64,000 bases of DNA from sequence record NC_052659.1, one strand, 5' to 3'. The position numbers were made by a program, and so were the translations under genes. Source of the DNA: Escherichia phage nieznany. The notes below the pieces were generated by a model that ran no database searches, was not told the DNA's origin, and saw only the letters and a program-made list of their open reading frames with translations. This document shows positions 17,540 through 36,181 of this stretch, piece after piece. Numbering within the stretch: position 1 is the stretch's first letter; each line of letters opens with the position of its first letter.

Positions 17540-17545
17540 ATATAA

Positions 17546-19501: not shown

Positions 19502-19510
19502 GGAGAACTG

Positions 19511-20503: not shown

Positions 20504-20511
20504 GGAGGGTT

Positions 20512-21390
20512 ATGAAAGGTATTATTTTGGCGGGAGGAAGTGGAACCCGCCTTCATCCGGTAACACGCAGTGTGAGCAAGCAATTGCTCCCTGTGTATGA
20601 CAAACCCATGATCTACTACCCTTTATCGGTATTGATGTTGGCTGACATTAAGGATATTTTAATCATCACCACACCAGGTGATCAGGAAGACTTTGAGTAT
20701 CTTCTCGGAGATGGGTCTATGTTTGGGATAAAACTCACTTACGCAATCCAATCCGAGCCACGAGGTCTTGCGGAAGCTTTCATCATAGGTAAAGATTTTA
20801 TCGGAGAAGACTCTGTTGCTCTTATTTTAGGTGACAACCTATTCTTCGGACAAAGCTTTGGTAAACTACTGATTAACGCCAGTGAGATGGTAGATGTTTG
20901 GGGAGGAGCTTGTATTTTCGGGTATTTGGTGAAAGATCCTGAACGATTCGGTGTGGTTGAATTTGGGAGTAATCGTCAAGCTATTTCTATTGAAGAGAAA
21001 CCTGAAAATCCTAAATCAGATTATGCTGTCACAGGTTTGTATTTCTATGATAACTCTGTTATTCAACGTGCATTAGAAGTAACCCCTTCCGCGCGTGGAG
21101 AACTGGAGATCACTGATATCAATCGCAGCTACCTAGAAGACAGGAAGTTACAAGTGGAAGTTCTCGGACGAGGATTTACTTGGCTTGACACAGGAACACA
21201 CGCCAGTCTGATGGAAGCTGGTCAATTCGTGCAGACTATTGAGAACTGTCAAGGATTGAAGATTGCGTGCCTGGAAGAAATTGCTTTCAAAAAAGGGTGG
21301 ATTTCTTTAGAGACTTTGGTGTATCATGGAAACTCACTGAAGAAAACAGAGTACGGGCAATACCTACTCAAATTAGCGGAGAGAAAATGA
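20512..21390 (+). CDS. rmlA: glucose-1-phosphate thymidylyltransferase (RmlA)
   Basis: N-terminal [18 protein letters not shown], near-identical to the RmlA signature. Confidence 0.9.
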
Positions 21391-21953
21391 AAGTAGAAAA
21401 AACAAAAATTGAAGGTGCGGTAATTATCAAACCAGACGTTTATAAAGATGATCGTGGTTTCTTTCTAGAAACATATAATGAACAAAAATACGAAGATATT
21501 ATTGGTAGACAAACTTTCGTTCAAGATAACATGTCTAAATCAAACTTCGGTGTTTTGCGAGGAATGCACTTTCAAACAAATAACCCGCAAGGTAAGCTAG
21601 TTCGTTGTGTAAGTGGGGAAGTATTGGATTTCGCTGTAGATTTACGTAAAGATAGTCCAACTTACGGTGCTTGGGACGGTGTTGTTCTTCGTGCACGACA
21701 CCATACGCAGTTTTGGCTTCCGCCTGGTTTGGCTCATGGTTTTATAGTTTTGAGTATGGATGCTATCTTTGAATACAAATGCACAACTCCATACGACCCT
21801 TCTAGTGAACAAAGTTTACGTTGGGATGATCCTGATATAGGGATCGATTGGGGCTTCGATATGATTTTTGACGAAGGTTTTAAACCTATTCTATCAACAA
21901 AAGATGCAATGGCTAAATCTTTTCAACAGTTACGTAGCGAGGGTGTATGCTAA
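21387..21953 (+). CDS. rmlC: dTDP-4-dehydrorhamnose 3,5-epimerase (RmlC)
   Basis: ATGA overlap with rmlA; cupin-type epimerase motifs [14 protein letters not shown]. Confidence 0.8.
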
Positions 21954-22789
21954 CATATCTGGTATTGGGCGGTAATGGACAACTGGGACAAGCTTTACGT
22001 AAAGTGGCTCCTTCAAATGTATCTTTAATTTATCCTAAAGAACGTGTAGATATTACAAATTTTGAAGCTGTGCGAAACGCTATTATTGAAGATTATGTAG
22101 ATGGTGTTATTAATTGCGCCGCTTATACGGCTGTAGATAAAGCAGAACATGATTTTGCTACTGCTTTGGCTGTTAATGCGTATGGACCTGCAAATATTGC
22201 GGCAGTGTGCAGCAAACTTAAAATTGATTTTGTGCATATTTCTACAGACTATATTTTTAATTATTCTCATCCTATTTTTGAAGATACTACACCTAACCCA
22301 ATAAACAATTATGGGTATACGAAAGAACTTGGTGAAAAAATGGTGCGAGGAGTTAACCCAAATGCATATATTATTCGAACAGCCTCGGTATATAGCGAAT
22401 TTGGAAATAACTTTCTAAAAACCATGTTGTCTCGCTATAATGATGGACAACGTGATTTTATTATTGTTGCTGATCAGTTCTCTTGTCCAACATATGCTCC
22501 AGATTTAGCAGAAGCTATTTTTGAAGTATTAAAAACAGGTTGGTCAAGGTCTATTAAGACTTACCATTTTGCAGGAAGCCATCTTATTTCTTGGGCGGAG
22601 TTTGCGGAAAAGATCTTGACACAGATGCCAGAACCTGTTAAGATATCGGCGGTATCAGCTTCAACCTATAATGCTCCAGCAGCACGTCCGGTGAAGTCAC
22701 AACTAGTAACCAGTCACTATCTTACAAAATCAGATTTAAATAAAGGTATTGAACAGTCTTTAGCAGTATTACTTAATAAGGAGAGGTAA
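21947..22789 (+). CDS. rmlD: dTDP-4-dehydrorhamnose reductase (RmlD)
   Basis: N-terminal LVLGGNGQLG; completes the four-gene rml cluster. Confidence 0.8.
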   Translation: MLTYLVLGGNGQLGQALRKVAPSNVSLIYPKERVDITNFEAVRNAIIEDYVDGVINCAAYTAVDKAEHDFATALAVNAYGPANIAAVCSKLKIDFVHISTDYIFNYSHPIFEDTTPNPINNYGYTKELGEKMVRGVNPNAYIIRTASVYSEFGNNFLKTMLSRYNDGQRDFIIVADQFSCPTYAPDLAEAIFEVLKTGWSRSIKTYHFAGSHLISWAEFAEKILTQMPEPVKISAVSASTYNAPAARPVKSQLVTSHYLTKSDLNKGIEQSLAVLLNKER

Positions 22790-23049
22790 TGGAATTTGTA
22801 ATTTTTGGTAAACCTAACTGTCAATTTTGTGAAATGTCAAAACAACTATTAACCATGCGCAATAAACAGTTTGAATATTTAAGTCTTGATCAAGACTATG
22901 ATTTAGAATCAATGACTAAAACAGTTGTTGATCTTACCGGAGTTCCTCCACGCACATTTCCACAAATTCTGTCCGAAGTGAACGGGGAGGTAACATACGT
23001 AGGCGGTTTTACCGAACTGCGTGATCTCATGGCTCAAATTGCGGAGTAA
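22789..23049 (+). CDS. glutaredoxin/NrdH-like thioredoxin-fold protein
   Basis: GKPNCQFC active-site CxxC; 86 aa. Confidence 0.6.
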   Translation: MEFVIFGKPNCQFCEMSKQLLTMRNKQFEYLSLDQDYDLESMTKTVVDLTGVPPRTFPQILSEVNGEVTYVGGFTELRDLMAQIAE

Positions 23050-23211: not shown

Positions 23212-23712
23212 ATGGCTAAAGTAGTAGATGAGTTTGATATGCTACGAGTCGATGAAGGACTGAAGCTTACTGTTTATCAAGACCATCTTGGTTATTGGAC
23301 AGTCGGCATAGGACACCTTCTGACTAAAATAAAAGATAAAGCAAAGGCTATTCAAATCTTAGATAATCTTCTTGGTCGTAAGACTAATGGAGTTATCACA
23401 GAAAAAGAAGCCCGTCAAATCTTTGCTGATGATGTTGCAAAAGTGAAGAGAGACATAAAAAACAGTGCTATCTTATCACCAATCTATGATAAGGTTAGTG
23501 ATACTCGTAAATTGGGAATAATCAACATGGTTTTCCAGTTGGGGTTAAAAGGTGCTGAAGGGTTTCAAAATAGCTTGACTTTAATCAGCAATGCATATTA
23601 TACTCAAGCAGGTAAAAACATGCGTAAAAGCCGATGGTATAGCCAGACGCCAAACCGTGCTGAACGAGTAATTAAAGTTCTGACTTCTGGAACTTTAGAT
23701 GCTTACAACTAA
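23212..23712 (+). CDS. e: T4-type lysozyme (endolysin e)
   Basis: MLRVDEGLKLTVYQDHLGYWTVGIGHLLTK and SRWYSQTPNRAERVI closely match T4 lysozyme as recalled. Confidence 0.85.
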   Translation: MAKVVDEFDMLRVDEGLKLTVYQDHLGYWTVGIGHLLTKIKDKAKAIQILDNLLGRKTNGVITEKEARQIFADDVAKVKRDIKNSAILSPIYDKVSDTRKLGIINMVFQLGLKGAEGFQNSLTLISNAYYTQAGKNMRKSRWYSQTPNRAERVIKVLTSGTLDAYN

Positions 23713-23713
23713 T

Positions 23714-23731
23714 AAAGGGGCTTCGGCCCCT
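23714..23731 (+). terminator. UUCG-tetraloop hairpin AAGGGGCTTCGGCCCCTT
   Basis: Seen in sequence; no long T-tract. Confidence 0.4.
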
Positions 23732-23749
23732 TCTAAAAGGAGTGCTACT

Positions 23750-24508
23750 ATGGGAAATAAAACCGCAGCTAAAACACAACGGCAGAAACTGGCTAATTCA
23801 GCAAAGATTGAAAGCCGTTATGCAGCAAAAGCGGTAGGTAATGACGATTACCGTTTAGATGAATTTATGCCTGAAGGGGACCAAAATAAGATTGTTCAAA
23901 GCATGATTTGGAATGATCTGACTGTTGTAAATGCTCCGGCAGGGACTGGTAAAACCTCTGTTGCTTTATGGAAAGCTTTGCAGATGCTTCGTTCAGGAGA
24001 CTTCCGTAAACTACTTTTTATCAAGAACCCTACTGAAGTCGGAGATGACCAGATTGGTTTCTTGTCTGGAGATAAAACAGATAAACTAGCAGCACACTAT
24101 GAATCTACAAAACGTATTTTCCAGCAATTCATGACAGCCAACAAATTGGAAAACGACATTGGATCAGGTAAGATCGAATTGAATATTCCTAACTATTTGT
24201 TGGGGGCCACCCTGGATAATACAATCGTCATTATTGACGAAGCACAACTTATGTCAACAGAAACACTTAAACTTCTTATTGAACGTGCAGGTATTAATAC
24301 GCATGTTATTGTATTAGGCGATGTTCGCCAGACATATGCAATTAAAAAACGTAGCAATGGTCTGCATCAAATTTTGGAACTTTTATATCCAGAAAATGAA
24401 GAAGGTGTTCGTGAGCCAATTGTAGATTTTATTGGATACGTTGAACTGACAACGGACGATAATAAACGTGGACGTTTGTCTAAACTGATTACTGAAGTGT
24501 TTATTTAA
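23750..24508 (+). CDS. phoH: PhoH-like ATPase
   Basis: Walker A GTGKTSVAL, PhoH-like architecture; start placed at ATG 23750 after hairpin and AAGGAG RBS. Confidence 0.75.
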   Translation: MGNKTAAKTQRQKLANSAKIESRYAAKAVGNDDYRLDEFMPEGDQNKIVQSMIWNDLTVVNAPAGTGKTSVALWKALQMLRSGDFRKLLFIKNPTEVGDDQIGFLSGDKTDKLAAHYESTKRIFQQFMTANKLENDIGSGKIELNIPNYLLGATLDNTIVIIDEAQLMSTETLKLLIERAGINTHVIVLGDVRQTYAIKKRSNGLHQILELLYPENEEGVREPIVDFIGYVELTTDDNKRGRLSKLITEVFI

Positions 24509-24540
24509 TAACATGGCAGGGAAGCCATTTATAAGGAGGA

Positions 24541-25044
24541 TTGATGGGTGTAGCAACAATAGCTATCGGAAGAAGCGGTATAGATGAGTGCTATCAAACG
24601 GGACTCGTAAAACCTAACGAATTTCGTCAAATTTGTGTAAACCATATTGAAAAAGAGATTGCTCTTACTTTAGAGAATATGACCCTCCGAGATAAACTGG
24701 AAATGTTTAAATGTTGGTGTCTAGGAGAAGATTGGCTTTTAAACCATTTTCAAGAACTTTCTGATAGTAAAGAAAGCTTGTTTGATTGTATAATAGGAAT
24801 AGCTGGCTCCGATCCTAGCCTTCTGCACATAACAGAAGAAGAGGCGAAGTTACTGTTCTTAAGTAATTTGTTTAATAAGAAAGCACTGCTTGTTCGTGAT
24901 TGCAGTGATCTTCTTAATAACCCGCTCGCAACGTCTGATCAAATTTTTGTTGACAAAGAGACACTACGTGCGATAGAATACATCTGCAAATATGTGAATG
25001 GCGGGAAAGCGGTTCTTAAAACATTAACAGAGGAGGAAGAATAG
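24541..25044 (+). CDS. hypothetical protein
   Basis: 167 aa ORF directly upstream of, and overlapping, the HslV-like gene. Confidence 0.45.
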   Translation: MMGVATIAIGRSGIDECYQTGLVKPNEFRQICVNHIEKEIALTLENMTLRDKLEMFKCWCLGEDWLLNHFQELSDSKESLFDCIIGIAGSDPSLLHITEEEAKLLFLSNLFNKKALLVRDCSDLLNNPLATSDQIFVDKETLRAIEYICKYVNGGKAVLKTLTEEEE

Positions 25045-25736
25045 TGACGACAATTATTGCAACCAAAAATAAGATTTTGAGTGACGGTAAGGTAACTTTT
25101 GGTGGACGTGTAGATTCTATTAATTTCAAAAAGGTCCGAAAAATTGGAGATTACCTTGTGGGTGGTGCTGGTCGTCTGACCTCCGTGCTTTCTTTCTTTC
25201 AATGGTTTGAACAAAATCTACAGTGCGAAGCAGCACGTGATGCTGTCCCTGGTTTGATGATTCACTCTGATCCAGATAAAGAAGATGAAGAGTTTATTGC
25301 ACTTGTTGTTCATCCAGACGGACGTATTTTCCTGCACGAAGGTAACAACCCAACACGTGCATATCCGATTGATGAAGAATATTATGCGGTAGGAAGTGGG
25401 TCAGACTTTGCTTTAGCTGCTCTTGATGCAGGGGCAACACCAGAACAGGCTATGGAAGTAGCTAAAAAGCGAGATGCTTTTTCTGGTGGTGAAACATTTA
25501 TTGAAGAACAAGACGAGATTATTGAATTAACAGACGATGATTTAGAAAACTTCTCCAAAGAAGAATTGATCAATCTTTTGAAATTCGGTAATCCCTACGG
25601 TGAAGAAGAACCTCGTAACGTGGCAGGCAACGAGGCGGATACTGAAGAAAAATATGTTGCAGAAAACAACTTGACTTCTAAATCTGAAAATATTAATCTC
25701 GTAAATGTGGCGGATTTCGAAGGAACCGCTATTTAA
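25044..25736 (+). CDS. HslV / proteasome beta-subunit-like Ntn-hydrolase peptidase with acidic C-terminal extension
   Basis: GTG start; M-TTIIA N-terminus (catalytic Thr after Met removal), KKVRK, VGGAG and YAVGSGSDFALAA match HslV TTIV...KKVRR...AGGTADA...GSGG as recalled. Confidence 0.7.
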   Translation: MTTIIATKNKILSDGKVTFGGRVDSINFKKVRKIGDYLVGGAGRLTSVLSFFQWFEQNLQCEAARDAVPGLMIHSDPDKEDEEFIALVVHPDGRIFLHEGNNPTRAYPIDEEYYAVGSGSDFALAALDAGATPEQAMEVAKKRDAFSGGETFIEEQDEIIELTDDDLENFSKEELINLLKFGNPYGEEEPRNVAGNEADTEEKYVAENNLTSKSENINLVNVADFEGTAI

Positions 25737-25742
25737 CAAACT

Positions 25743-25756
25743 GCCCCTTCGGGGGC
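25743..25756 (+). terminator. hairpin GCCCCTTCGGGGGC
   Basis: Seen in sequence. Confidence 0.4.
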
Positions 25757-25781
25757 ATTTCTTAAACATAGGAGATTAATA

Positions 25782-26216
25782 ATGTTACAAGTTCCTGCTA
25801 AGTTTGTTGAAGGCGCTATCCACTCTTACCGTCAAACATGTAAGAGGGCAAGAAACTGTTTAGATGGTCTGGTGGCAAAAACCTATACTGTTGAAAAGAA
25901 AAAACGTTGGTTTGGCAAAGATGTTTACGAAGTTAATATTTTTGGTGAACATAAACTAAACCACGATACTCCTGAAAACATGTTAGAAATATTTCTAAGA
26001 GATGACAAAATATCTCCTATGGATTACCAACTTTTAAAATTTTATGATTCTTCTTTAGCTATTGATAAGTTTGTTGAAGATATTCTGTCTAGAAAAACAG
26101 ATAAAAACACTTATCCTCTAGAGGCTGATCAAATAGGATTATTAAACGAGATTTCATCCTTTAAAGAGTTGGATAATATTACAAAAGAGGAGATTTTAGA
26201 TGGCATTAGATTATGA
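25782..26216 (+). CDS. hypothetical protein
   Basis: 144 aa ORF. Confidence 0.45.
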   Translation: MLQVPAKFVEGAIHSYRQTCKRARNCLDGLVAKTYTVEKKKRWFGKDVYEVNIFGEHKLNHDTPENMLEIFLRDDKISPMDYQLLKFYDSSLAIDKFVEDILSRKTDKNTYPLEADQIGLLNEISSFKELDNITKEEILDGIRL

Positions 26217-26709
26217 TCGCCCAACGAGCGATTATTATCCGACACCGCAAAAAGCAATCAACAGTTTGTTTAGTGTTATAGATTTCAAAAATCTAAAGGA
26301 AGAAGGTTGGGTTTTTGCAGAACCTTGTAGAGGTGAAGCTGAAGCGATTTATCGCCATTTTCCTGAAGGTTCAGAATATTGTGAACTTGAAGAAGGTAAA
26401 GATTATTTTAGTCATGAATGGGAAAATCGTCCCGACATTATAATCACAAATCCTCCATTCAAGTTAGCAATGGAGTTCTTGGAAAAGAGCTTAAAAGAGG
26501 CGGATGTTTGTATTTATCTTCTTCGGTTGGGCTTCTTGGAGTCAAAGAAACGACGAGAGTTCCATCAAAAGAATCCACCAACAAACCTTATAGTCCTTTC
26601 AGAACGGCCTTCGTTTGTTGCAGGTGGAACAGATAAGACAGCATACGCTTGGTATGTATACGACCCAAAGAATCGTTTGGGCCTCTCTCAACCATTTTAT
26701 TTTGTTTAA
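26200..26709 (+). CDS. phage Dam-like N6-adenine DNA methyltransferase (small form)
   Basis: IITNPPF motif IV; size about 170 aa typical of small phage Dam family. Confidence 0.5.
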   Translation: MALDYDRPTSDYYPTPQKAINSLFSVIDFKNLKEEGWVFAEPCRGEAEAIYRHFPEGSEYCELEEGKDYFSHEWENRPDIIITNPPFKLAMEFLEKSLKEADVCIYLLRLGFLESKKRREFHQKNPPTNLIVLSERPSFVAGGTDKTAYAWYVYDPKNRLGLSQPFYFV

Positions 26710-26721
26710 GGAGTGTGAACT

Positions 26722-26958
26722 ATGGGTAAACTAATTATGACAGTGGCTATTGATTTTGATGAAGTAGATGAAAGCCTCAACCTTTCACTTTCTACTGACG
26801 TAGATGGCGAAATGGATAATATTGAAGCAGCTACTGCTCTTTTCTTCAAAAAAGCCATTGAAGTTTATGCCGAACATGCTGCAAATCAGGCAGTAGATTA
26901 CGGTGGTATCGTGCGAGCTTTGGTTCACTCTACCGAGGACAATGACTGGGAAGACTAA
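26722..26958 (+). CDS. hypothetical acidic protein
   Basis: 78 aa ORF. Confidence 0.4.
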   Translation: MGKLIMTVAIDFDEVDESLNLSLSTDVDGEMDNIEAATALFFKKAIEVYAEHAANQAVDYGGIVRALVHSTEDNDWED

Positions 26959-27161
26959 TGGCTTACAATTATTACTGCATTTATGCACATGAAAAGAAGA
27001 AAGGTGACACTGGGACTAACGTTTATGCGGAGTCTGAATCTCATGCAAAAGAGATTGGTGCTATCCTTTTATCACGCTGGACTGGAAATAATTACAGTGC
27101 AGAAGATATGTTTGCAGAAGTGGATTCTAGTATCCAAGAAGGCAACATAACAACTACGTGA
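26958..27161 (+). CDS. hypothetical protein
   Basis: 67 aa ORF. Confidence 0.35.
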   Translation: MAYNYYCIYAHEKKKGDTGTNVYAESESHAKEIGAILLSRWTGNNYSAEDMFAEVDSSIQEGNITTT

Positions 27162-27180
27162 TATACTTATACTCCCTTCT

Positions 27181-27206
27181 CGGAGGGAGTATTTTTAAGG
27201 AGGGAT
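27181..27206 (+). terminator. hairpin ACTCCCTTCTCGGAGGGAGT + T-tract
   Basis: Seen in sequence. Confidence 0.5.
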
Positions 27207-27207
27207 T

Positions 27208-27402
27208 ATGCAGAGCGGAGAAGAACTTTTAGAGAAACAATTCTCAACGCGTCAACAAGCTTTAAGTTATATGGTTTTTCTAAGCAATCTTGATGTGAAT
27301 GAGATACTTTTACGGCGCGAAGGTAATTTCTGGAGCGTTAAATATCATGCAACAAGGTCTGTAATCTACCTGGAAGAGGCGGAATTCTCTTTGGTAGAAT
27401 GA
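27208..27402 (+). CDS. hypothetical protein
   Basis: 64 aa ORF. Confidence 0.35.
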   Translation: MQSGEELLEKQFSTRQQALSYMVFLSNLDVNEILLRREGNFWSVKYHATRSVIYLEEAEFSLVE

Positions 27403-27416
27403 TCCGAGGAGTAGTT

Positions 27417-27830
27417 ATGCGTTCAACTTTCACTGGCAAAATAAATGCTGGTTTGATTTTTACAGCAGTAAGCATTCTTAGCAAAAAGTTTAAAGTTGTT
27501 AACCTACCTGTGTGTGTCGATTTTGATCATGTTTTTGATCCTTCGAACCCCACTCGTTGCATAGTAAGGAGTAATGTTGAAAACCCAACAGAAAATCTTT
27601 TTTATGTAACAAAACCATCTCAAAGCATACTTAACCAGGTTGAGGCGAAATTGATACCTAACGGTAAATATTACTCCTTTTTACCTTGTAAGTCGGTTGA
27701 AGTAGAGAATAGCAGTACTTTCGCTAACAACTTGTCTGTATTCGTTTTCTTTGTTTCGCACGAAGATGAAACAGATGAAATGGTAGCAACAGTGAGATCA
27801 CTTTATGACTCTTTAGGGGGTTGTTTATAG
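27417..27830 (+). CDS. hypothetical protein
   Basis: GAGGAG then ATG 27417. Confidence 0.4.
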   Translation: MRSTFTGKINAGLIFTAVSILSKKFKVVNLPVCVDFDHVFDPSNPTRCIVRSNVENPTENLFYVTKPSQSILNQVEAKLIPNGKYYSFLPCKSVEVENSSTFANNLSVFVFFVSHEDETDEMVATVRSLYDSLGGCL

Positions 27831-28000
27831 TCAACAAGTGTGCGAAAATAATAAAGCCTGTGTAGATTTCATTATCAACGGTATTTGTGTTTGTAGAGTA
27901 GAATCTTTTTGGCTGCACGATACATATGTGACTGTAGCAGAGGTTATATCTGAACCAAAATTTAGTCATGCGGTTTCGTTAATAATTTGAGGAGGAAGGA

Positions 28001-28330
28001 ATGGAAATTACTACAGAACAAGCCCTTATCGACGAGGGTCGTAAAATCTTAGAAAAGCATTTAGGGGAGATTCATAAAACTCCTGGCTATTTGGGTTGGA
28101 GAATTGTTGAAGCTGTAGATTTCCTTCCTCGTAACAGTAAAAGCGTCGAAATGCGATCTCTTTTCTTATTAGTAAAGGTGGATGGGGATACACCTTTTAA
28201 AGATGCCGCAGAGCATATTGAAAAAGTTGAAGAGAAAGCTTATGCAGAATTTGCAGATCTTGTTTTAGAACAAGAGATTGAAGGAAAGGTAAATATTTTT
28301 ATTTTCTTAGATTTTGAGGAGGATAAGTGA
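28001..28330 (+). CDS. hypothetical protein
   Basis: GGAGGAAGGA then ATG. Confidence 0.45.
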   Translation: MEITTEQALIDEGRKILEKHLGEIHKTPGYLGWRIVEAVDFLPRNSKSVEMRSLFLLVKVDGDTPFKDAAEHIEKVEEKAYAEFADLVLEQEIEGKVNIFIFLDFEEDK

Positions 28331-29070
28331 TCATACATAGAGAAATTACTGTTAAAAGCGATCAAGATCTTTTTATAATTGGAGATCTACATGGTTGTTA
28401 TAATTTGTATGAAAAAGGAAAGGCAAAGTTAGGTATCCGAGATACAGATGTGGTTGTATCTTTAGGAGATCTTACTGACCGTGGAAAGCAAAACTTTCGT
28501 TGTGTTTTAGAATTTACTCGTAAACACAATCGCTACGCTATTCGTGGAAATCATGAAGACATGATGATTAAAGGTATGCTGGAAGGAGATCGTAGCTACT
28601 TCGAGTGTTGGTATCAAAATGGAGGATATACAGTCCTTGAAGAATGTGGTGAAGAAGGAGCTACAGCCTTAGCAATGATGACAGAAGATTTACCTGTTGT
28701 TCTCATTGTTAACTACAGAGGCATGAAACTTGCGTTTATTCATGGTGGGTATCCATCTTCTTTGGAATATCTCCCTATAACAGATATTCCAGAATACACT
28801 TTGAAGATGACAAAAACACAAGAAAACCGTTTTGCTGAAGCACTTATGTGGGACAGAGATATGGTGGACTGTGCTAAAGAGGGAATGAAACTTCCTGTTG
28901 TGATGGGTGTGGACTATGTGTTTCATGGACACTCTTATGTAAAAACACCTATTATCAATGCGAATCGTGTTTATATGGATACTGGATCTGTGTTCAATAA
29001 TAACTTAACATTTGCTTATTTCGATATGGACGGTGGTCTTCAATTTTATTCAACTCTTGAGGAGGATTAA
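28327..29070 (+). CDS. Ser/Thr protein phosphatase (PPP-family metallophosphatase, lambda-phosphatase-like)
   Basis: GDLHGC, GDLTDRG, RGNHED motifs. Confidence 0.7.
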   Translation: MIIHREITVKSDQDLFIIGDLHGCYNLYEKGKAKLGIRDTDVVVSLGDLTDRGKQNFRCVLEFTRKHNRYAIRGNHEDMMIKGMLEGDRSYFECWYQNGGYTVLEECGEEGATALAMMTEDLPVVLIVNYRGMKLAFIHGGYPSSLEYLPITDIPEYTLKMTKTQENRFAEALMWDRDMVDCAKEGMKLPVVMGVDYVFHGHSYVKTPIINANRVYMDTGSVFNNNLTFAYFDMDGGLQFYSTLEED

Positions 29071-29378
29071 TGTATAAGATTACAATTATTCAAAGTGTAG
29101 GTAATATCCGTAAAGAAGTTATCTTAGAAACAGAAGATGTTAATCTTGTTCGTGAGATTGTTTTTAAGGAAGATAACCTGCAAGCTGTAGAATCGGATGC
29201 ACCGAATCTTATGGTGGATCAAGAATATTCTGAACTTCGTCGTATTTTTGAAGAGATTCAGAAGAAAGAAACACAACCTACCATAAAACCTTTTGGTCCT
29301 TATGATCCGAGCAATCCTAGCAGTCCTTGGATCATGAGAAATACAGAACCATATACACCTTTTGAAATTACTTGCTGA
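29070..29378 (+). CDS. hypothetical protein
   Basis: 102 aa ORF. Confidence 0.4.
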   Translation: MYKITIIQSVGNIRKEVILETEDVNLVREIVFKEDNLQAVESDAPNLMVDQEYSELRRIFEEIQKKETQPTIKPFGPYDPSNPSSPWIMRNTEPYTPFEITC

Positions 29379-29385
29379 GGTGTTT

Positions 29386-29967
29386 ATGGCAGAATTGTTT
29401 TATACGGGAGTTGGAAGTAGAGACATCTCCGAAGAAGAGTGGGCTTTGATGGTAGGCATAGGGAAATGGCTTTCCAACCTTGGATTTAAATTAAGGTCTG
29501 GGAAGGCAGAGGGTAGTGATTCTGCTTTTGAAACAGGTGTCCAAGAGTCTGAAAATCCTACCAACAAGGAGATTTATGTACCTTGGGAAAATTTCAAAGG
29601 TAATCAGATTCCAGGTGATGTTATTGTTCTTGCAAAACCAGATACAATGAACTATGCTATCTCTGTGCAATGGATCAAAGATGTTCACCCAGCTTATGAA
29701 AAGCTTAAGCAGGGCGCTAGAAAATTGCACCAACGTAATGTGCATCAGGTGTTAGGTAAAGATTTGGAGAATCCTGCTCCATCATGTTTCTTGTTGGCTT
29801 GTGCCGATACTGATAAACACGGAGATGCAAAAGGCGGAACAGCTACGGCTTGGAAGATAGCTAAAGCAAATAATGTTCCTTGTTTAAACATTCGTGGGAA
29901 AACAAAACAAGAGATTTACGATTTTCTACGACCTTTGGTAATGAGGGCAATAACAAGTGATTCCTAA
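29386..29967 (+). CDS. DprA/SLOG-like Rossmann-fold protein (tentative)
   Basis: TGVGSRDIS and SGKAEGSDSAFETG resemble DprA GTR...SGxAxGID motif. Confidence 0.35.
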   Translation: MAELFYTGVGSRDISEEEWALMVGIGKWLSNLGFKLRSGKAEGSDSAFETGVQESENPTNKEIYVPWENFKGNQIPGDVIVLAKPDTMNYAISVQWIKDVHPAYEKLKQGARKLHQRNVHQVLGKDLENPAPSCFLLACADTDKHGDAKGGTATAWKIAKANNVPCLNIRGKTKQEIYDFLRPLVMRAITSDS

Positions 29968-30469
29968 ACGTAAACGTGGTGAACAAAGAACAAACTTGGC
30001 AGAAATCTTAGATTACAACATGGTTAATGATGTGACAAAAGAAATTCTCCCTGTTGTAGAAGATATTCTTCATAGAGGGTTACGATTCTGCTTTGATCGG
30101 GTGCATTTCATGTGGACACATAAAAGTGACTCCGCTTTGAATTTCTATCCTTTGGACTATACTCTGAACAATACAGAGATGAAAGATATCAACAAATACT
30201 TAATGGGATATAAAGATATAACCGAAACTGTTCTTGGAGAATTAGCAGAAATCTTGGCTAACGATATCCTTAGAAATATTAATAAGGCTCTTGACAGAAG
30301 CCCAGCAGGAGTAGTAGTATCTTTTGCTGTGCCAGATATGGTTAAATATGAGTCTACAATACCTAATAAAGCTTATGCCTTTCTTCGGAGAGACGTTCGT
30401 GGAAATGTGTTGGAGATGGAGTCAAACTACAAAATTGAGGAGGTTTTATGGCAGAGTTCGGATCAGTAA
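29957..30469 (+). CDS. hypothetical protein
   Basis: 170 aa ORF. Confidence 0.45.
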   Translation: MIPKRKRGEQRTNLAEILDYNMVNDVTKEILPVVEDILHRGLRFCFDRVHFMWTHKSDSALNFYPLDYTLNNTEMKDINKYLMGYKDITETVLGELAEILANDILRNINKALDRSPAGVVVSFAVPDMVKYESTIPNKAYAFLRRDVRGNVLEMESNYKIEEVLWQSSDQ

Positions 30470-30738
30470 CAAGTTTTGAAAGTAACTTCGTTACCGCTTG
30501 GGAAGCTTGGGATGAAATGGGTGTTGGTGAACTTTATTTTTACAATGTAACACTACGCCCAGAGTATGCTTACCTGGTACCAGAAGGTACAGTTCAAATT
30601 GGTATGTATTTGTCTTCTCAAGACGGTGTTGTTCAATTTGAGTTTTATTCAAACACAACGGACAACGAATTTACATATCGTGCATTTCATGTCACCATGT
30701 CTTTAGGAGAGGAGAAATTTTATGACGACCAAGTTTAA
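30448..30738 (+). CDS. hypothetical protein
   Basis: 96 aa ORF. Confidence 0.4.
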   Translation: MAEFGSVTSFESNFVTAWEAWDEMGVGELYFYNVTLRPEYAYLVPEGTVQIGMYLSSQDGVVQFEFYSNTTDNEFTYRAFHVTMSLGEEKFYDDQV

Positions 30739-30919
30739 AACAGTAGAAGAAGCCGTAAAAGCAGCTTATGATGCTTTAGCGGAAGCAGAGCAGTTAGCAG
30801 ACGAGACTGGAGAAGGTTTCCGTTTCTCCCCTGAATATGGGATGGGTGGTTATTATGATCCAGAAGATGAAAATGAGAATACTGGGACAAATTGGCATCC
30901 ATCTTCTTTAAGTTGTTAA
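30722..30919 (+). CDS. small acidic protein ending in WHPSSLSC (paralog family, C-terminal Cys)
   Basis: Shares C-terminal motif with 31206..31424 and 31434..31706. Confidence 0.4.
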   Translation: MTTKFKTVEEAVKAAYDALAEAEQLADETGEGFRFSPEYGMGGYYDPEDENENTGTNWHPSSLSC

Positions 30920-30930
30920 TAGGAGGTAAA

Positions 30931-31206
30931 GTGGGAATCGAAGATATCAAAGGTTATAAGGCGCATACTGACGATAAGATTGGCAAGGTTAACGCTATTA
31001 AAGATGCAGAAGAGCGTTTAGGTTTAATCTTCAAAGCTTTAGAGGAAGAGTATTGTGAAGCATATCATGGGTCTTTTGACGGCACAGAAAAAGAATTAGA
31101 TGTTGCATACGAGCGTATTGATCAAATCCGTTGTGCTATTAAACATTTAAAAGAAGCTAGTATGTGGGCTTGTCGTTCAGTTTTCCAACCGGAGGAGAAA
31201 TACTAA
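30931..31206 (+). CDS. hypothetical protein (GTG start)
   Basis: AGGAGG then GTG 30931. Confidence 0.35.
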   Translation: MGIEDIKGYKAHTDDKIGKVNAIKDAEERLGLIFKALEEEYCEAYHGSFDGTEKELDVAYERIDQIRCAIKHLKEASMWACRSVFQPEEKY

Positions 31207-31424
31207 TGAGTGATCGTAATGTTGAAGAATTAACTGAAAAAGCCCAAGCTATTATGGCTTTAGTGGACGAACTTACAAAAGAAGCTGAAGATGCTGGTTT
31301 TGGTCTTAGTTTAGAAGATAACGCAATCTGTTTTGAGGATTGGCAATCCTCTTCTTGTTATGGTGAAGGTGATGATGGTTTCGTCGTTAATTCTCAAGGC
31401 GTTTGGCACAGTAGTAGCTGTTAA
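31206..31424 (+). CDS. small acidic protein ending in WHSSSC (paralog family)
   Basis: GGAGGAG then ATG 31206. Confidence 0.4.
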   Translation: MSDRNVEELTEKAQAIMALVDELTKEAEDAGFGLSLEDNAICFEDWQSSSCYGEGDDGFVVNSQGVWHSSSC

Positions 31425-31433
31425 GGAGAGATT

Positions 31434-31706
31434 GTGGAGTCTGAAGGCGAACTGCTGATAAAAAAGAAAGTTAAAGAGATGGAACAAGCACAAAGAAAGT
31501 TTCGTAAGGAAATCGAAGAACTTTGTGAACAGTTTCAGGAACAAGCTTGGATAGGTGACTACGGTAACGGAGAAACTTATTACCCTACAGGAACGCCAGC
31601 CGCAGATCACTATATTGATTTCATTTGTGAAGATTATGGTGTAGAGTTGGATGAAAATGGTTTAACCACAAGAGGTGTTTGGATCTCTTCTTCCTCAATG
31701 TGTTAG
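31434..31706 (+). CDS. small acidic protein ending in WISSSSMC (paralog family)
   Basis: 90 aa ORF. Confidence 0.4.
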   Translation: MESEGELLIKKKVKEMEQAQRKFRKEIEELCEQFQEQAWIGDYGNGETYYPTGTPAADHYIDFICEDYGVELDENGLTTRGVWISSSSMC

Positions 31707-31726
31707 TAAATAATAACCCGCTTCGG

Positions 31727-31776
31727 CGGGTTTTTTATTGACAGAAATCTGGAAGCTTGATAAACTTAACCTATCA
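31727..31776 (+). promoter_or_regulatory. terminator hairpin CCCGCTTCGGCGGG + T6 followed by promoter TTGACA-17-TAAACT
   Basis: Seen in sequence. Confidence 0.5.
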
Positions 31777-31796
31777 ACCAATAGAGGAGAAATATT

Positions 31797-32738
31797 ATGG
31801 TGTTAATTGGTAGCCGTGCATTACAAATTCATGCTATGGATATGGGAAAAGACTTGTATCGCCCTTGTGTAGATTTAGATTACCTCTGTACAGAACAAGA
31901 ATGGGAAGAATTATCAAAAATGTTCTCTCAAGATGAGTTTGTTGAACTTGTAGAGCGTAAAGGGAACAAGGGCCATGTCAAAATGATAGCTGGTGCACAT
32001 TTGGAATACGATATTGCTTCTCAAGGAGATAGCACAGAAGCTTTGATTAGTTATTGTGAAGACTCTGATGATATTCGTCGAACTTACGCTGGACACGTTG
32101 TTGCTCCTTTAGATGTGCTCTACCTTCTTAAAATGAGTCATCGTTTTAAAAAGGATAGTCCTCACTTCTTTAAAACTATGAAAGATATTCATTTCATGCG
32201 ATCACTAGGCGCAAAGATCCCAGAAAATCTTAAGAGTATTTATGAGTTGCGTGAGAAAGAAACATACACTTACTCTCATCCAAACTTAAACGTGAGAAGT
32301 AAAGACTTCTTTAAAGGTGATGAGGTTCCGTATGTTTATGATCATGACTCTATTCATGAAGCAATCGCAGTAATGGATGCTCCAGCATATAAATCTTATA
32401 TGAAAGATGGAAGTGAAGTTATGACCAGCAAAGAAAAGTTTTTTGCTCAACCAAAACATGTGCGCCTGTTAGGTGTTTATGAAGAAGCGTGTGTTTTGGC
32501 TTTGGAACGTTCACAAATTCCTTTCGGTGAAGAGATCGGAGGTCCAACCCCTAAGCAAAGTTTTATGATGGCTTTATCTAAAGTTTGCACATCTATCACT
32601 AGTGGTTGGTTTAGGGAATATGCTTGGGAGAACTTTTATATTGTTACTAAACTATATGAAAACATGGGTGAAAACGACTATGTTGAACGTTTTAAAGCTA
32701 ATCGACATGTAGTTAAGCCTTTTGAAGGAGGTTATTAA
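31797..32738 (+). CDS. hypothetical protein; possible nucleotidyltransferase-fold (GS...DxD) - weak
   Basis: N-terminal LIGSRALQ...CVDLDYL loosely resembles a minimal NTase motif; 313 aa. Confidence 0.4.
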   Translation: MVLIGSRALQIHAMDMGKDLYRPCVDLDYLCTEQEWEELSKMFSQDEFVELVERKGNKGHVKMIAGAHLEYDIASQGDSTEALISYCEDSDDIRRTYAGHVVAPLDVLYLLKMSHRFKKDSPHFFKTMKDIHFMRSLGAKIPENLKSIYELREKETYTYSHPNLNVRSKDFFKGDEVPYVYDHDSIHEAIAVMDAPAYKSYMKDGSEVMTSKEKFFAQPKHVRLLGVYEEACVLALERSQIPFGEEIGGPTPKQSFMMALSKVCTSITSGWFREYAWENFYIVTKLYENMGENDYVERFKANRHVVKPFEGGY

Positions 32739-32739
32739 T

Positions 32740-33135
32740 ATGTGTGGATATCTTTCAGAAAGTTATTTCAAAGTGACGCATGAGGATTTAGAAAAAGCAC
32801 GATTGAAATTGACAGCTATTATTGAATACTCTAATACTGTTGATCACAGATTAAAGACTACTAAAGTATCTGTTCCTTGTTGGTTAGGTTTACGGCATAA
32901 AACAATGTCTCAACATGATCATGTTGTTCGAGAGATGCATGGTTGGTGTTGGTTTCACGATGTGGCTTTGCATTTTGGTTATATTACAGAAGAAGAACAT
33001 AGATTCTGTGAACTAACGTATCGTATTCCAACCCTTCACGATCTAGATTTGTGGAAGAAAGCAAACGAGATTTTTCTTACAGAAAGTGATTGGCGTAAAG
33101 TTATGGCTTGTCTTGAATGGAGGGGTAATGAGTAA
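32740..33135 (+). CDS. hypothetical protein
   Basis: GAAGGAGG then ATG 32740. Confidence 0.4.
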   Translation: MCGYLSESYFKVTHEDLEKARLKLTAIIEYSNTVDHRLKTTKVSVPCWLGLRHKTMSQHDHVVREMHGWCWFHDVALHFGYITEEEHRFCELTYRIPTLHDLDLWKKANEIFLTESDWRKVMACLEWRGNE

Positions 33136-33811
33136 AACAGTTTTGTCTATGTTTGACGGATCTGGGATCATGGTGTTACGTTATGCTGAAGCAGGTCACA
33201 AGTGTTTTTGTGTAAACGCTGATGAAGGGGACCACGGTAAATACGAGGTTAGGATGGAGCACCCAAACATAACCTATGTGAATGCTTGGATAGATTCTAC
33301 ATTCAACCCTGAAGATCATGGAATACCTAAACCCGATATTATTTTTGGATTTCCACCTTGCACTATGTTAGCAGGTAGTGGTAGCAAACACGAACGCAGC
33401 ACAGAGGAATTAGATGAAGCTTTAGCTAATATTCGTGTAGTGGAAGCTTTGGGTAACAAATACAATGTTCCTTGGATGATTGAGAACCCAGTAGGTAAAC
33501 TTTCAACCTTATGGCGTAAACCCGATTTTTACTTTGATCCTTATGAGTATGGTGGGTATTTGTTTGAAGAGGAAGGAAGCTTTCATCCTAAAATGCCTAC
33601 CCGCGATGGGTATACAAAGAAAACTTGTATTTGGCACGGGAATGGTTTTGTTCAACCAGTGAAGAAACCAGTAGATCATATAGGCTGCTTCTGGGGTTGG
33701 AAAAGCTTAGGCGGAGCTAGTGCAAAAACAAAACAACTTAGATCACTAACCGCACGTGGTTTTGCTCGTGCAGTGTTTTTGTCTAACAATCTTCTAGATA
33801 AGGAGAAATAA
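33128..33811 (+). CDS. minimal C5-cytosine methyltransferase-like protein (catalytic core motifs, no obvious target-recognition domain)
   Basis: Motif I FDGSG, motif IV GFPPC, motif VI ENP(V)G in canonical order within about 130 aa; total only about 227 aa. Confidence 0.45.
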   Translation: MSKTVLSMFDGSGIMVLRYAEAGHKCFCVNADEGDHGKYEVRMEHPNITYVNAWIDSTFNPEDHGIPKPDIIFGFPPCTMLAGSGSKHERSTEELDEALANIRVVEALGNKYNVPWMIENPVGKLSTLWRKPDFYFDPYEYGGYLFEEEGSFHPKMPTRDGYTKKTCIWHGNGFVQPVKKPVDHIGCFWGWKSLGGASAKTKQLRSLTARGFARAVFLSNNLLDKEK

Positions 33812-34464
33812 TGTCAAATTCCAAACCAGTAGTTGCTTATCAAGTAGATCGTAATGATGGTGAAGGAAGTGTTGTTATTTTCAGTACACACGGTCTTGAG
33901 GCTCGTCGAAAAGGTGCGTATCGTTTAGAATGTGAGTTTGAAGACTGCACAAGCCACCGTGTCAAACAATTTGATCAATATGCAGATAAAGGTTTTGTCC
34001 CTATCAAAGCCTTGCTGGAAGATGGTTGGTGGGTATATTCCGCTTTTGACTACTCAAAGTTGGAGGAGTCAGCTTCGTGCGCATCCGAGATCGAATATGA
34101 TGATTACTATGACACTCTCTACCTTCCAGAATGGCTTGTCTTTTCCCCTGATGAGAGAAGCGTCTGGAAAACTTGGGAAGAAATGGAGAGACATGCATAT
34201 AGCATCAATGAAGCCTTAGATCGTAAAGCTTGGTTTATTGAGGCAGTAAAGGCGGCATACCCTCAATTTTCATTCTGTGATTTCACTGGTGGCCCAGGGT
34301 ACATTACACATACAGCCTCTTTTGAGTTCCCTGGTTCACGTTATAAAGGTAACGTTTATTGGGATTGGGATGAAAATAAACAACCTTCGGCTCAAGACTT
34401 CCGTTGCTATGTTTGCCAAGGTGATCAAGAAGCCCTTGACAAATACCTACAAAGTCTGGTATAG
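33811..34464 (+). CDS. hypothetical protein
   Basis: 217 aa ORF, TAATG overlap. Confidence 0.45.
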   Translation: MSNSKPVVAYQVDRNDGEGSVVIFSTHGLEARRKGAYRLECEFEDCTSHRVKQFDQYADKGFVPIKALLEDGWWVYSAFDYSKLEESASCASEIEYDDYYDTLYLPEWLVFSPDERSVWKTWEEMERHAYSINEALDRKAWFIEAVKAAYPQFSFCDFTGGPGYITHTASFEFPGSRYKGNVYWDWDENKQPSAQDFRCYVCQGDQEALDKYLQSLV

Positions 34465-34522
34465 TGCCAACATCTGAACAAAGCCTCCTGTTTCAGGGGG
34501 CTTTTCTTTTATAGGAGGGAAT

Positions 34523-34996
34523 ATGTTTCAAGTAAATGTCAATGTGCATAATAGTTACTCTGATTGTGAGACGTGTGGCTATAATTCATCTAATGTTGTT
34601 CGTATTAGTGGCGATTTAGGAGAAGCTTCTTTTGGAGAAGAAGCAAGTTGCTTTAGTGGTATGGATGCAGAATGGAACGATATTGCACATTGGTTGGTGA
34701 GCAAACTAAAAGAAAAAGAGAAACCATTTCCTACTCTGCTTGATCGTTCTCTTGTAGAAGATGCAGGTAAAGCATATGCAGACTATGCGTATGCAGACGG
34801 GAAATATTTGGAAGATGATAAGGCTAACCATTTGCTTTATGTTTACTATGAAGCTGAATCTGCCTACGATAATTATTATAGCATGTCTAACATCCTACGT
34901 CTGTTTGCAGAGTTTGATATTTATTTCGAAGTAGAATTTTCAGAAGATGATACTTACGAATATGATTCTTATGATCCATTTGAGGAGGACGAATAA
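34523..34996 (+). CDS. hypothetical highly acidic protein
   Basis: 157 aa ORF, D/E/Y-rich C-terminus. Confidence 0.45.
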   Translation: MFQVNVNVHNSYSDCETCGYNSSNVVRISGDLGEASFGEEASCFSGMDAEWNDIAHWLVSKLKEKEKPFPTLLDRSLVEDAGKAYADYAYADGKYLEDDKANHLLYVYYEAESAYDNYYSMSNILRLFAEFDIYFEVEFSEDDTYEYDSYDPFEEDE

Positions 34997-35796
34997 TGCC
35001 AAGACGTGTATATTTTATTAGTGGTGCGGGACTAAGTGCTGACAGCGGAATCCAAACATTTCGCACAGAAACAGATTCTGGAAAGGCATTATGGGATGAA
35101 TACGATTTAACAGAAGTCTGTGACATTTTCAACTTCCGTGACGGTTATCAGCAAGAACAGGGTATTCCTGATGCTATGGGTGGCTTAGATGTGGAAGGAT
35201 ATAACCTCTACCGTAAAACTCACGACTTCTACAATAAACGTCGCGTGGAATTAGAGAAAGTTGACCCGAATCCAGCACATCTTCAGATTGGAGAATGGTT
35301 CGAAAAATACGGTGCAGAAAGGATTATTAACATTACTACTAACGTTGACGATCTATTAGAACGCGCTGGAATCGATAGAGAAGAAATATTGCACGTTCAT
35401 GGTTTCTTGCCAGAAGTTGTTGTTGATAACAAAATTATCAAAGATGTGGGTTACGCAGCTATTGATGTAGACGATTACAAATATGTGAAGCCTAATGTGG
35501 TGTTTTTTGGTGAGAATGCACCACTCTACACAGACATGTATCACAAACTGGATCAACTAACATCACAAGATATGGTTATCGTTGTAGGCTGCTCTAACCA
35601 AGTAATCAACTTCAACTGGGAACTCTTCCCTGCCCTGAATATTGGGGTTAAGATGGTTGTAGTTAACCCAGGTTTGAATTTTGTAGAACAAACTCTCTAC
35701 GAAGAACGTGGAGTGCTTGTCTACCGAGAGAAAGCAGGAACAGTCTTCAGTGATGAAGGCTTTATCAAAATGGTTGAAGACCATTTAAACAAATAA
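34996..35796 (+). CDS. Sir2 (sirtuin)-family NAD-dependent protein, lacking the zinc-ribbon cysteines
   Basis: GAGLSADSGIQTFR (GAGIS..GIPxFR), TTNVDDLLERAG (TQNID), catalytic HVHG, VVFFGE, VVGCS. Confidence 0.7.
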   Translation: MPRRVYFISGAGLSADSGIQTFRTETDSGKALWDEYDLTEVCDIFNFRDGYQQEQGIPDAMGGLDVEGYNLYRKTHDFYNKRRVELEKVDPNPAHLQIGEWFEKYGAERIINITTNVDDLLERAGIDREEILHVHGFLPEVVVDNKIIKDVGYAAIDVDDYKYVKPNVVFFGENAPLYTDMYHKLDQLTSQDMVIVVGCSNQVINFNWELFPALNIGVKMVVVNPGLNFVEQTLYEERGVLVYREKAGTVFSDEGFIKMVEDHLNK

Positions 35797-35804
35797 ACCA
35801 CTCA

Positions 35805-35822
35805 AGGGGCTTCGGCCCCTTT
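35805..35822 (+). terminator. UUCG-tetraloop hairpin AAGGGGCTTCGGCCCCTT
   Basis: Seen in sequence. Confidence 0.45.
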
Positions 35823-35839
35823 CTTATTAGGAGAATAAA

Positions 35840-36112
35840 ATGACTGAAGAAATCCGTGATTACTACCTTGCACATTACGTTTACTACTTTGCTAATGCTA
35901 CACAAAAAGGGGAAGGTAATCTTTACTTGGCAACAGGACATGGAACAGGTGTTAGGAAATCAAATATTGATAATGCCTTGGCTCAAGTAGCTGCGGGGCT
36001 AGAAGATAAACTTCAAACACCTGTAGTTGCAGTGATGCAAAATATAAGTTACCTAGCAAGTTGTACTGAAACCGAATTTAACGCATCTGAAACGCAATCT
36101 AACGAAGAATAA
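35840..36112 (+). CDS. hypothetical protein
   Basis: 90 aa ORF. Confidence 0.4.
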   Translation: MTEEIRDYYLAHYVYYFANATQKGEGNLYLATGHGTGVRKSNIDNALAQVAAGLEDKLQTPVVAVMQNISYLASCTETEFNASETQSNEE

Positions 36113-36115
36113 AAC

Positions 36116-36140
36116 AAAGGCACCCAAGTGGGTGCCTTTT
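36116..36140. terminator. bidirectional terminator hairpin AAAGGCACCCAAGTGGGTGCCTTTT at the convergence of plus and minus blocks
   Basis: Seen in sequence; flanked by A/T tracts on both sides. Confidence 0.6.
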
Positions 36141-36181
36141 CTATTTTAGAGCGTCTCTGTTCGATTTAGGTGGGTTCTAGC

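Follow-up and report, generated by a model that had tools for sequence, protein, structure and literature searches.

The question raised by positions 28327-29070 of Escherichia phage nieznany (sequence record NC_052659.1) is what a gene for a lambda-type phosphatase does in this phage, and whether it belongs to a set of genes devoted to host takeover. All coordinates refer to the window, that is, the whole stretch of 64,000 nucleotides that was analysed. An earlier note on this DNA had proposed a eukaryotic-like Ser/Thr phosphatase of the phosphoprotein phosphatase (PPP) family, lying in an early-gene island of 24.5-36 kilobases (kb) with HslV-like, Sir2-like, methyltransferase-like and DprA-like genes. 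Among phAPEC8-like coliphages the phosphatase is an unremarkable accessory gene that was annotated before. Its product is quite likely a catalytically intact, two-metal phosphoprotein phosphatase of the bacterial or phage PPP type, with broad specificity and acting in the infected cell.

The gene itself is present as claimed, with an open reading frame (ORF) that spans exactly 28327-29070 on the + strand. It is tightly packed between two small ORFs, and the features of this junction region are as follows.

28327-29070, + strand: phosphatase coding sequence, a lambda-phosphatase/NinI-type bacterial PPP of 247 residues plus stop, with a GTG start
28316-28322, + strand: Shine-Dalgarno sequence GAGGAGG, as read in the sequence, 4 bases ahead of the phosphatase GTG
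28001-28330, + strand: upstream ORF of 109 residues (PHROG 15398, function unknown), translationally coupled to the phosphatase
29070-29378, + strand: downstream ORF of 102 residues (PHROG 15301, function unknown), coupled to the phosphatase
29044-29067, + strand: C-terminal tail FYSTLEED, conserved in the phage clade according to the family alignment

The GTG start is credible because of this strong Shine-Dalgarno sequence and because the start codon shares bases with the stop codon of the upstream ORF (GTGA); the same coding sequence is annotated in phage ukendt (RefSeq NC_052661). The phosphatase stop codon in turn overlaps the ATG of the 102-residue ORF (TAATG), a weak homologue of which holds the equivalent position in a distant relative. 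None of the small flanking ORFs scanned against Pfam, which include 28001-28330 and 29070-29378, gave a match. At two successive junctions (28316-28330 and 29059-29072), codons for a C-terminal Glu-Glu-Asp (GAGGAGGAT) double as the Shine-Dalgarno sequence of the next gene: those that end the 109-residue ORF supply that of the phosphatase, and the last phosphatase codons, GAG GAG GAT, supply that of the 102-residue ORF. Such acidic C-termini may be conserved for translational coupling rather than for protein function. The FYSTLEED tail was considered as an acidic docking motif and dropped, because its codons form the downstream GAGGAGG, which explains the tail at least partly; its conservation may be imposed in part at the nucleotide level.

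The active site is complete. Its motifs and individual residues, together with the one sizeable departure from lambda phosphatase, are located as follows.

28381-28398, + strand: PPP motif I, GDLHGC, residues 19-24; D20 and H22 are metal ligands, and D20, H22 and G23 are invariant
28465-28485, + strand: PPP motif II, GDLTDRG, residues 47-53; D48, D51, R52 and G53 are invariant
28543-28560, + strand: PPP motif III, RGNHED, residues 73-78; N75 is a metal ligand and H76 the general acid, and G74, N75 and H76 are invariant
28741-28743, + strand: H139, metal ligand in an HGG context, aligning with H139 of lambda phosphatase
28855-28857, + strand: R177, invariant phosphate-binding Arg, aligning with R162 of lambda phosphatase
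28927-28932, + strand: G201-H202, the last metal-binding His and the Gly before it, which is typical of bacterial-type PPPs; both are invariant
28975-28986, + strand: MDTG, residues 217-220, the bacterial-type (I/L/V)D(S/T)G motif; D218 aligns with D202 of lambda phosphatase
28762-28842, + strand: clade-specific insertion relative to lambda phosphatase, about residues 146-172, with about 15 extra residues over three gaps in the alignment to 1g5b

Within motif II, D48 is the bridging ligand, with D51 pairing with H76 and R52 binding phosphate. In a HMMER alignment to the structure of the lambda Ser/Thr phosphatase (PDB 1g5b), lambda residues D20, H22, D49, D52, R53, N75, H76, H139, R162 and H186 fall on D20, H22, D48, D51, R52, N75, H76, H139, R177 and H202, respectively. 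The catalytic set of lambda phosphatase consists of D20, H22, D49, N75, H139, H186, H76, R53 and R162. Published work confirms H186 and D202 of the lambda enzyme (PMC535813). The three PPP signatures are all found, GDXHG as GDLHG (residues 19-23), GDXXDRG as GDLTDRG (residues 47-53) and GNH(E/D) as GNHE (residues 74-77). With GDLHGC, GDLTDRG and RGNHED present and 1g5b the best solved-structure match, the earlier placement among lambda-phosphatase-type members of the PPP family stands. The earlier note had itself named loss of the metal-binding motifs on careful alignment as what would overturn it; the motifs survive such alignment, and all lambda catalytic residues align and are invariant in the family.

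This conservation runs deep. Across the phosphatase and 32 relatives at 23-83% identity, drawn from a search of 5.8 billion proteins, D20, H22, D48, D51, R52, N75, H76, H139, R177, G201, H202 and D218 are invariant, and T219 and G220 nearly so (at least 90% of aligned sequences). As the catalytic residues hold over this range of identity, the alignment indicates purifying selection on the active site. It also bears on the idea that the protein is a catalytically dead remnant, kept as an operon spacer or as a binding protein. Accessory phage genes often decay, and the gp152 homologue in the window is truncated by a one-base insertion, though nothing specific to the phosphatase favours the idea; its catalytic residues are all intact and invariant down to 23% identity, its fold is predicted with high confidence, and its ORF is full length in all relatives. 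The dead-remnant explanation can thus be given hardly any credence.

The label 'eukaryotic-like' needs narrowing. Three traits distinguish bacterial-type PPPs (PMC535813): the motif (I/L/V)D(S/T)G, a Gly just ahead of the final metal-binding His, and the lack of the eukaryotic SAPNY loop. In the phosphatase, MDTG matches the IDTG column of the lambda enzyme, with Met standing in for I/L/V, G201 precedes H202, and no SAPNY occurs in the sequence. Because of these three features the protein is a bacterial- or phage-type PPP of the lambda/PrpA/PrpB group. The superfamily is indeed shared with eukaryotes, and to that extent the label was apt, but the hallmarks are those of the bacterial type.

Homology searches and structure prediction place the lambda enzyme closest. 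The phosphatase matches Pfam Metallophos (E 2.9e-13), PHROG 246 'NinI-like serine-threonine phosphatase' (E 9.5e-75) and, as its best solved structure, 1g5b (E 9.2e-27 over residues 10-230), to which it is 36% identical over 201 aligned positions. An AlphaFold2 model built on the alignment with the 32 relatives has a mean predicted local distance difference test (pLDDT) score of 95.9, and the insertion at residues 146-172 is modelled as two helices (151-158 and 163-175). The top solved structure for this model in Foldseek is again 1g5b (E 4.8e-20; template modelling (TM) score 0.87 target-normalized and 0.78 query-normalized; root-mean-square deviation 2.5 A), followed at a clear distance, with TM scores of about 0.5-0.65, by an ApaH-like protein, PP1, PPZ1 and the phosphatase domain of Clostridium thermocellum Pnkp.

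These lower matches introduce a different substrate class. The fold family includes ApaH, PrpE and Pnkp, and the enzyme might instead be a nucleotide or nucleic-acid phosphoesterase, acting on Ap4A or dinucleoside polyphosphates, on defence second messengers, or on 2',3'-cyclic-phosphate RNA ends for healing (like bacterial Pnkp), perhaps together with the adjacent SLOG-fold protein described below. Weaker NCBIfam matches point this way (NF010148 for PrpE, 37 bits against a cut-off of 340; NF001204 for ApaH, 32 against 176; TIGR00668, 16 against 223; Pnkp, 23 bits), as do PDB 2qjc (E 1e-5) and the Foldseek matches to 2qjc and 4j6o (TM about 0.6). PHROG 8238 'RNA ligase' matches phosphatase residues 9-146 (E 6e-10), a match that implies that some phages have the domain fused to RNA-repair enzymes. 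The SLOG-fold gene keeps its place near the phosphatase in a distant relative, and ThsA and ShosA, whose SLOG domains bind nucleotides, are among the structural neighbours of its product. The nucleotide-hydrolase models, however, match the shared N-terminal motifs only, whereas the protein-phosphatase models and lambda phosphatase match end to end. A separate 'phosphoesterase' (PHROG 547) at 3984-4538 in the window is the more natural candidate for RNA repair; the ukendt 'phosphoesterase' at the corresponding position adjoins an RNA ligase, in a stretch that differs between ukendt and the window. Homologues in T5-like, jumbo and Vibrio phages, moreover, have no SLOG neighbour. A nucleotide or nucleic-acid substrate is on balance unlikely, although it merits consideration.

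A phosphoprotein phosphatase remains the best reading because the end-to-end resemblance is to lambda phosphatase, PrpA and PrpB. Beyond the gene, fold, active site and conservation described above, we infer the metal identity, protein substrates, timing and biological role of such an enzyme, and the scheme that follows is conditional on the lambda analogy. Two divalent metals (Mn2+ or similar) would be bound by D20, H22, D48, N75, H139 and H202, as in lambda phosphatase, and would activate a bridging water for in-line attack on the phosphomonoester. R52 and R177 would grip the phosphate, while H76, oriented by D51, would protonate the leaving group. The gene belongs to a conserved accessory part of a Phapecoctavirus genome, in which successive genes overlap and are translationally coupled. 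Its product would dephosphorylate Ser, Thr, Tyr and possibly His residues in proteins of the host or of the phage, and would thereby damp host phospho-signalling or stress responses.

Several points weigh against assigning the phosphatase to protein substrates. Lambda-type PPPs are promiscuous in vitro, and lambda phosphatase also cleaves 2',3'-cyclic phosphates and phosphodiesters, so that the substrate in the cell cannot be read off the fold. The clade-specific insertion at residues 146-172 could change specificity, no protein kinase partner was seen in the examined parts of the genome, and the literature on phage PPP phosphatases yielded no activity, substrate or expression paper for this clade. 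Nor is the role of PrpA and PrpB in Cpx and heat-shock signalling transferable, because the scores fall far under the equivalog cut-offs; by this measure the phosphatase is a relative of PrpA and PrpB, not an equivalog or orthologue. PrpA, a dual-specificity enzyme, has been connected with heat-shock signalling and with CpxRA (PMC6213207). Neither lambda ninI nor P1 ppp is essential (PMC10695390), and by analogy the phosphatase is probably dispensable under laboratory conditions.

The gene is widespread. In a megablast search, 63 deposited phage records match 27000-31000 at 95-99% identity, the best being Escherichia phage AV126 (98.9%). Almost all of them come from Escherichia phages that belong to Phapecoctavirus, a genus of phAPEC8-like myoviruses (Stephanstirmvirinae) with genomes of about 150 kb, and the window is itself a Phapecoctavirus genome, 98-99% identical to Escherichia phages on deposit. 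The annotation of phage ukendt (NC_052661) already calls the gene 'NinI-like serine-threonine phosphatase' and refers to the phAPEC8 'putative serine/threonine protein phosphatase', and the same product name appears in a 2026 genome paper on a related phage (PMC13096147). Of 50,697 phage records searched by tblastn, 1,354 contain a homologue; they include T5-like Demerecviridae, jumbo phages (PBECO4, Eneladusvirus), lambdoid phages and many Vibrio phages; most carry a Ser/Thr phosphatase annotation. In a large protein collection, the close clade comprises proteins of 244-260 residues at 42-99% identity, on contigs of about 137-157 kb where long contigs exist. Beyond it, identity falls to 23-34%, and bacterial metallophosphoesterases make up the few proteins with a name. 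Synteny with T5-like, jumbo and Vibrio phages was considered and rejected: BLASTP showed only the phosphatase and one small ORF (in the jumbo phage) to be shared, and within 4 kb of the phosphatase, in three genomic settings compared, there was no homologue of the HslV-like gene, the SLOG-fold gene or the methyltransferases; the neighbourhoods resemble each other in annotation words only (ATP-dependent protease, endolysin, thioredoxin, phosphatase).

In the phage's own relatives the surroundings are far more constant, which bears on the claim of an island at 24.5-36 kb. The GC content is 0.37-0.40 over 22-36 kb, equal to the rest of the + strand block, and the GC skew switches sign only near the strand switch at 36.1 kb. 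Positions 24500-36150 are covered to at least 80% in 60 Phapecoctavirus records, the best of them collinear with 95-100% coverage at 95-99% identity, and to about 70% at 75% identity in more distant phages. Against ukendt, 18000-39999 aligns as a single block in which 24.5-36.15 kb is free of indels apart from one base; the variable spots lie elsewhere, at 1572-5379, 16840-17546 and 48-54 kb. Synteny extends to a relative with a 46%-identical phosphatase (Klebsiella KP13-16-like, a 137-kb contig), whose gene order runs NrdA, NrdB, glutaredoxin, lysozyme, PhoH, a homologue of the 167-residue ORF (24541-25044 in the window), HslV-like, phosphatase, a homologue of the 102-residue ORF, SLOG-fold, small methyltransferase. 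From this flat composition, collinearity, indel pattern and deep synteny, the cluster is judged to be a stable, vertically inherited part of these genomes, and the reading as an island is not supported.

What can be said for a dedicated early host-takeover or anti-defence segment, in which the phosphatase would reverse phosphorylation by host defence or abortive-infection kinases, is that 24.5-36 kb is rich in enzymes for host-type targets (PhoH, the HslV-like peptidase, two orphan methyltransferases, Sir2 and the SLOG-fold protein, with many unknowns) and that seven of its genes, from PhoH to the small methyltransferase, stay together in the 46%-identity relative. Phosphorylation is a weapon in phage-host conflict, as the phage T7 kinase illustrates (PMC13645617), although that paper employs a phosphatase merely as a reagent. 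A different phage metallophosphoesterase has been reported to counter host defence (PMC12287305), but this protein, mycobacteriophage gp48, is a nuclease-like toxin rather than a lambda-type PPP. The segment neither deviates in composition nor shows gene-sized indels, and it is the distal end of a co-directional block that it shares with the genes for ribonucleotide reductase, ThyX, DNA ligase and exonucleases. A block of many tiny unknown ORFs is the more usual look of takeover genes, and such ORFs sit on the opposite strand, past 36.1 kb. The defence-system models of PADLOC gave weak methyltransferase matches only, with the phosphatase marginal (E 0.0046), and published work describes relatives of this phage group as unusually vulnerable to restriction-modification systems (PMC8594841). 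A search of the literature found no tested anti-defence role for phage PPP phosphatases, and early timing finds no help in the promoter-like sites, which are no more frequent than in shuffles. A takeover or anti-defence role of this kind is accordingly more doubtful than a nucleotide substrate.

A narrower proposal would join PhoH, the 167-residue ORF, the HslV-like peptidase, the phosphatase, the 102-residue ORF, the SLOG-fold protein and the small methyltransferase in one coordinated counter-defence module. The phosphatase, with a specificity given by its insertion, would reverse phosphorylation by a defence kinase or hydrolyse a nucleotide immune signal, and the SLOG-fold protein would bind that signal; the analogy is with the SLOG domain of ThsA, which binds gcADPR. 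This gene set travels together in two diverged groups of myoviruses of about 140-155 kb. Such a module is nevertheless a long shot.

The phosphatase probably lies in a transcription unit of 25.8-31.7 kb, as delimited by two of the intergenic terminator-like hairpins.

25742-25757, + strand: terminator-like hairpin after the HslV-like gene, the probable upstream limit of the phosphatase transcription unit
31715-31732, + strand: terminator-like hairpin, the probable downstream limit of that unit

The terminator-like hairpins, 20 in number, exceed the 9.9 +/- 3.3 of shuffled sequence, and the other intergenic ones lie at 34480-34504, 35804-35821 and 36116-36139. The last is a perfect bidirectional terminator hairpin (AAAGGCACCC-AAGT-GGGTGCCTTT), at which two opposed gene blocks converge and the GC skew changes sign. 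There are 52 sigma-70 promoter-like sites, no clear excess over the 43 +/- 7 of shuffled sequence, and the temporal class of the phosphatase is therefore not readable from the sequence. No promoter was seen between the 25742-25757 terminator and the next gene; a promoter-like TTGACA-N17-TAAACT lies at 31738-31766, just past the 31715-31732 hairpin. This site and the terminator lie ahead of a gene at 31797-32738 (+ strand) for a 313-residue protein with two Pfam domains of unknown function that were defined only recently, DUF7277 (E 8e-14) and DUF7275 (E 6e-76); the protein is conserved in the cluster. No published transcriptome study of the phAPEC8-like group or Stephanstirmvirinae was found.

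Among the neighbouring genes, all those named in the earlier note are present, and their labels hold at family or superfamily level but not beyond it, 'DprA-like' being the weakest.

23699-24508: PhoH (Pfam E 1.2e-36)
25044-25736, + strand: HslV-like peptidase (PHROG 1040, E 2.7e-63; PDB HslV 1m4y, E 4.9e-9)
26200-26709: small methyltransferase with an NPPF motif (PHROG 799)
29362/29386-29967, + strand: the 'DprA-like' gene, a stand-alone SLOG-fold protein of 193 residues with a probable ATG at 29386 (PHROG 768)
33086/33128-33811: C5-methyltransferase-like ORF (PHROG 757; weak PADLOC cytosine-methylase matches)
34996-35796, + strand: Sir2 (Pfam E 1.4e-20)

The HslV-like peptidase scores 32 NCBIfam bits against a cut-off of 137, and its alignment to PDB 5ji3 starts at residue 1. 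Its N-terminus, MTTII, makes the putative nucleophile Thr N-terminal, and a GSG motif is present. Unlike HslV, it continues at the C-terminus in an acidic extension of about 70 residues. As no HslU-like ATPase was seen near the gene, the peptidase may use host HslU or act alone. Both methyltransferases carry the expected motifs. The nearest solved relatives of Sir2 are CobB-type and archaeal sirtuin deacylases, and the catalytic His region is kept. In the alignment to 1ma3, no Cys stands at the positions of the Cys pairs of that protein, which we take to be the sirtuin zinc-binding module; because these pairs have no counterpart, the phage protein may be a zinc-less sirtuin.

The product of 29386-29967 is, as modelled, a stand-alone SLOG-fold domain for which DprA orthology is not demonstrable, and its 193 residues leave no room for the further domains of DprA. 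The window copy has no Pfam match, and PDB sequence and profile searches with it were empty; 20 of its 32 relatives weakly match PF02481 (best E 2e-6) and five match PF18306 (SLOG cluster4). Its AlphaFold2 model has a pLDDT of 95.7, with the Rossmann domain of Helicobacter pylori DprA as the top Foldseek match (E 4e-6, TM about 0.5) and LOG, Moco-carrier proteins, ShosA and the SLOG domain of ThsA as further neighbours. ThsA (Thoeris) and ShosA are defence proteins with ligand-binding SLOG domains; the phage protein may bind ssDNA or a nucleotide signal. Its motifs GxGSR, RSGxAxGxD, HxRN and GGT are invariant.

The gp152 homologue at 27399-27990 (PHROG 4806, with the dubious name 'histidyl tRNA synthetase') is shortened to 143 residues, against 190 in ukendt. 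The truncation is due to one extra G at 27816-27820 (GGGGG, against GGGG in ukendt), with the C-terminus readable in the next frame at 27838-27990; it reflects a genuine frameshift or else a sequencing error in the homopolymer. Farther upstream, a 218-residue HNH-type endonuclease ORF (16883-17539, + strand; PHROG 953, E 2e-56) lies between the genes for the large and small subunits of ribonucleotide reductase. It looks like a free-standing homing endonuclease insertion, since it is missing from ukendt; a paralogue lies at 1590-2261, within the stretch 1572-5379 that differs from ukendt. Four dTDP-rhamnose genes (RmlB/A/C/D-like, according to the annotation of phAPEC8-like phages) occupy about 19500-22800 (+ strand), between the ribonucleotide reductase genes and glutaredoxin. 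Scanning the window for Rfam families and for tRNA genes gave no hits.

As a discovery, the phosphatase has little value, for it is annotated in dozens of Phapecoctavirus genomes and its family occurs in more than 1,000 phage records. The labels 'eukaryotic-like' and 'island' inflate the finding if left uncorrected. We know of no lambda-type phage phosphatase, lambda's own enzyme included, for which the physiological substrate is known. A virulent phage that carries a well-conserved member with fixed neighbours, namely the HslV-like peptidase and the SLOG-fold protein, would be a reasonable model for phosphoproteomics.

Compared with known systems, the phosphatase is most like lambda NinI (1g5b), with which it has in common the fold, the three PPP motifs, six metal ligands, the general-acid His, both phosphate-binding Arg and the D-T-G motif, and both are phage accessory genes. 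It differs in being 26 residues longer, with the insertion at residues 146-172, which follows the H139 strand, an extra C-terminal strand and the acidic tail, and in its genomic setting, a 150-kb virulent myovirus with HslV-like and SLOG-fold neighbours rather than the nin region of a temperate phage. Lambda phosphatase, PrpA and PrpB have been placed in PPP group III (PMC535813). Escherichia coli PrpA and PrpB are alike in that their NCBIfam models, NF008516 and NF007425, match over the full length (residues 3-230), but at 95.4 bits against a cut-off of 326 and 83 against 332, respectively. The Ap4A hydrolases ApaH and PrpE and the phosphatase domain of Pnkp share the calcineurin-like superfamily and the N-terminal metal-binding motifs, whereas the ApaH and PrpE matches in NCBIfam span residues 16-80 only, far under the cut-offs. 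Finally, the NinI-like phosphatases of T5-like Demerecviridae, of Eneladusvirus/PBECO4-type jumbo phages and of Vibrio phages belong to the same PHROG 246 and are 28-36% identical over nearly the full length, but, in the three settings compared, lack the HslV-like, SLOG-fold and methyltransferase neighbours that the phosphatase has in the phAPEC8-like coliphages.

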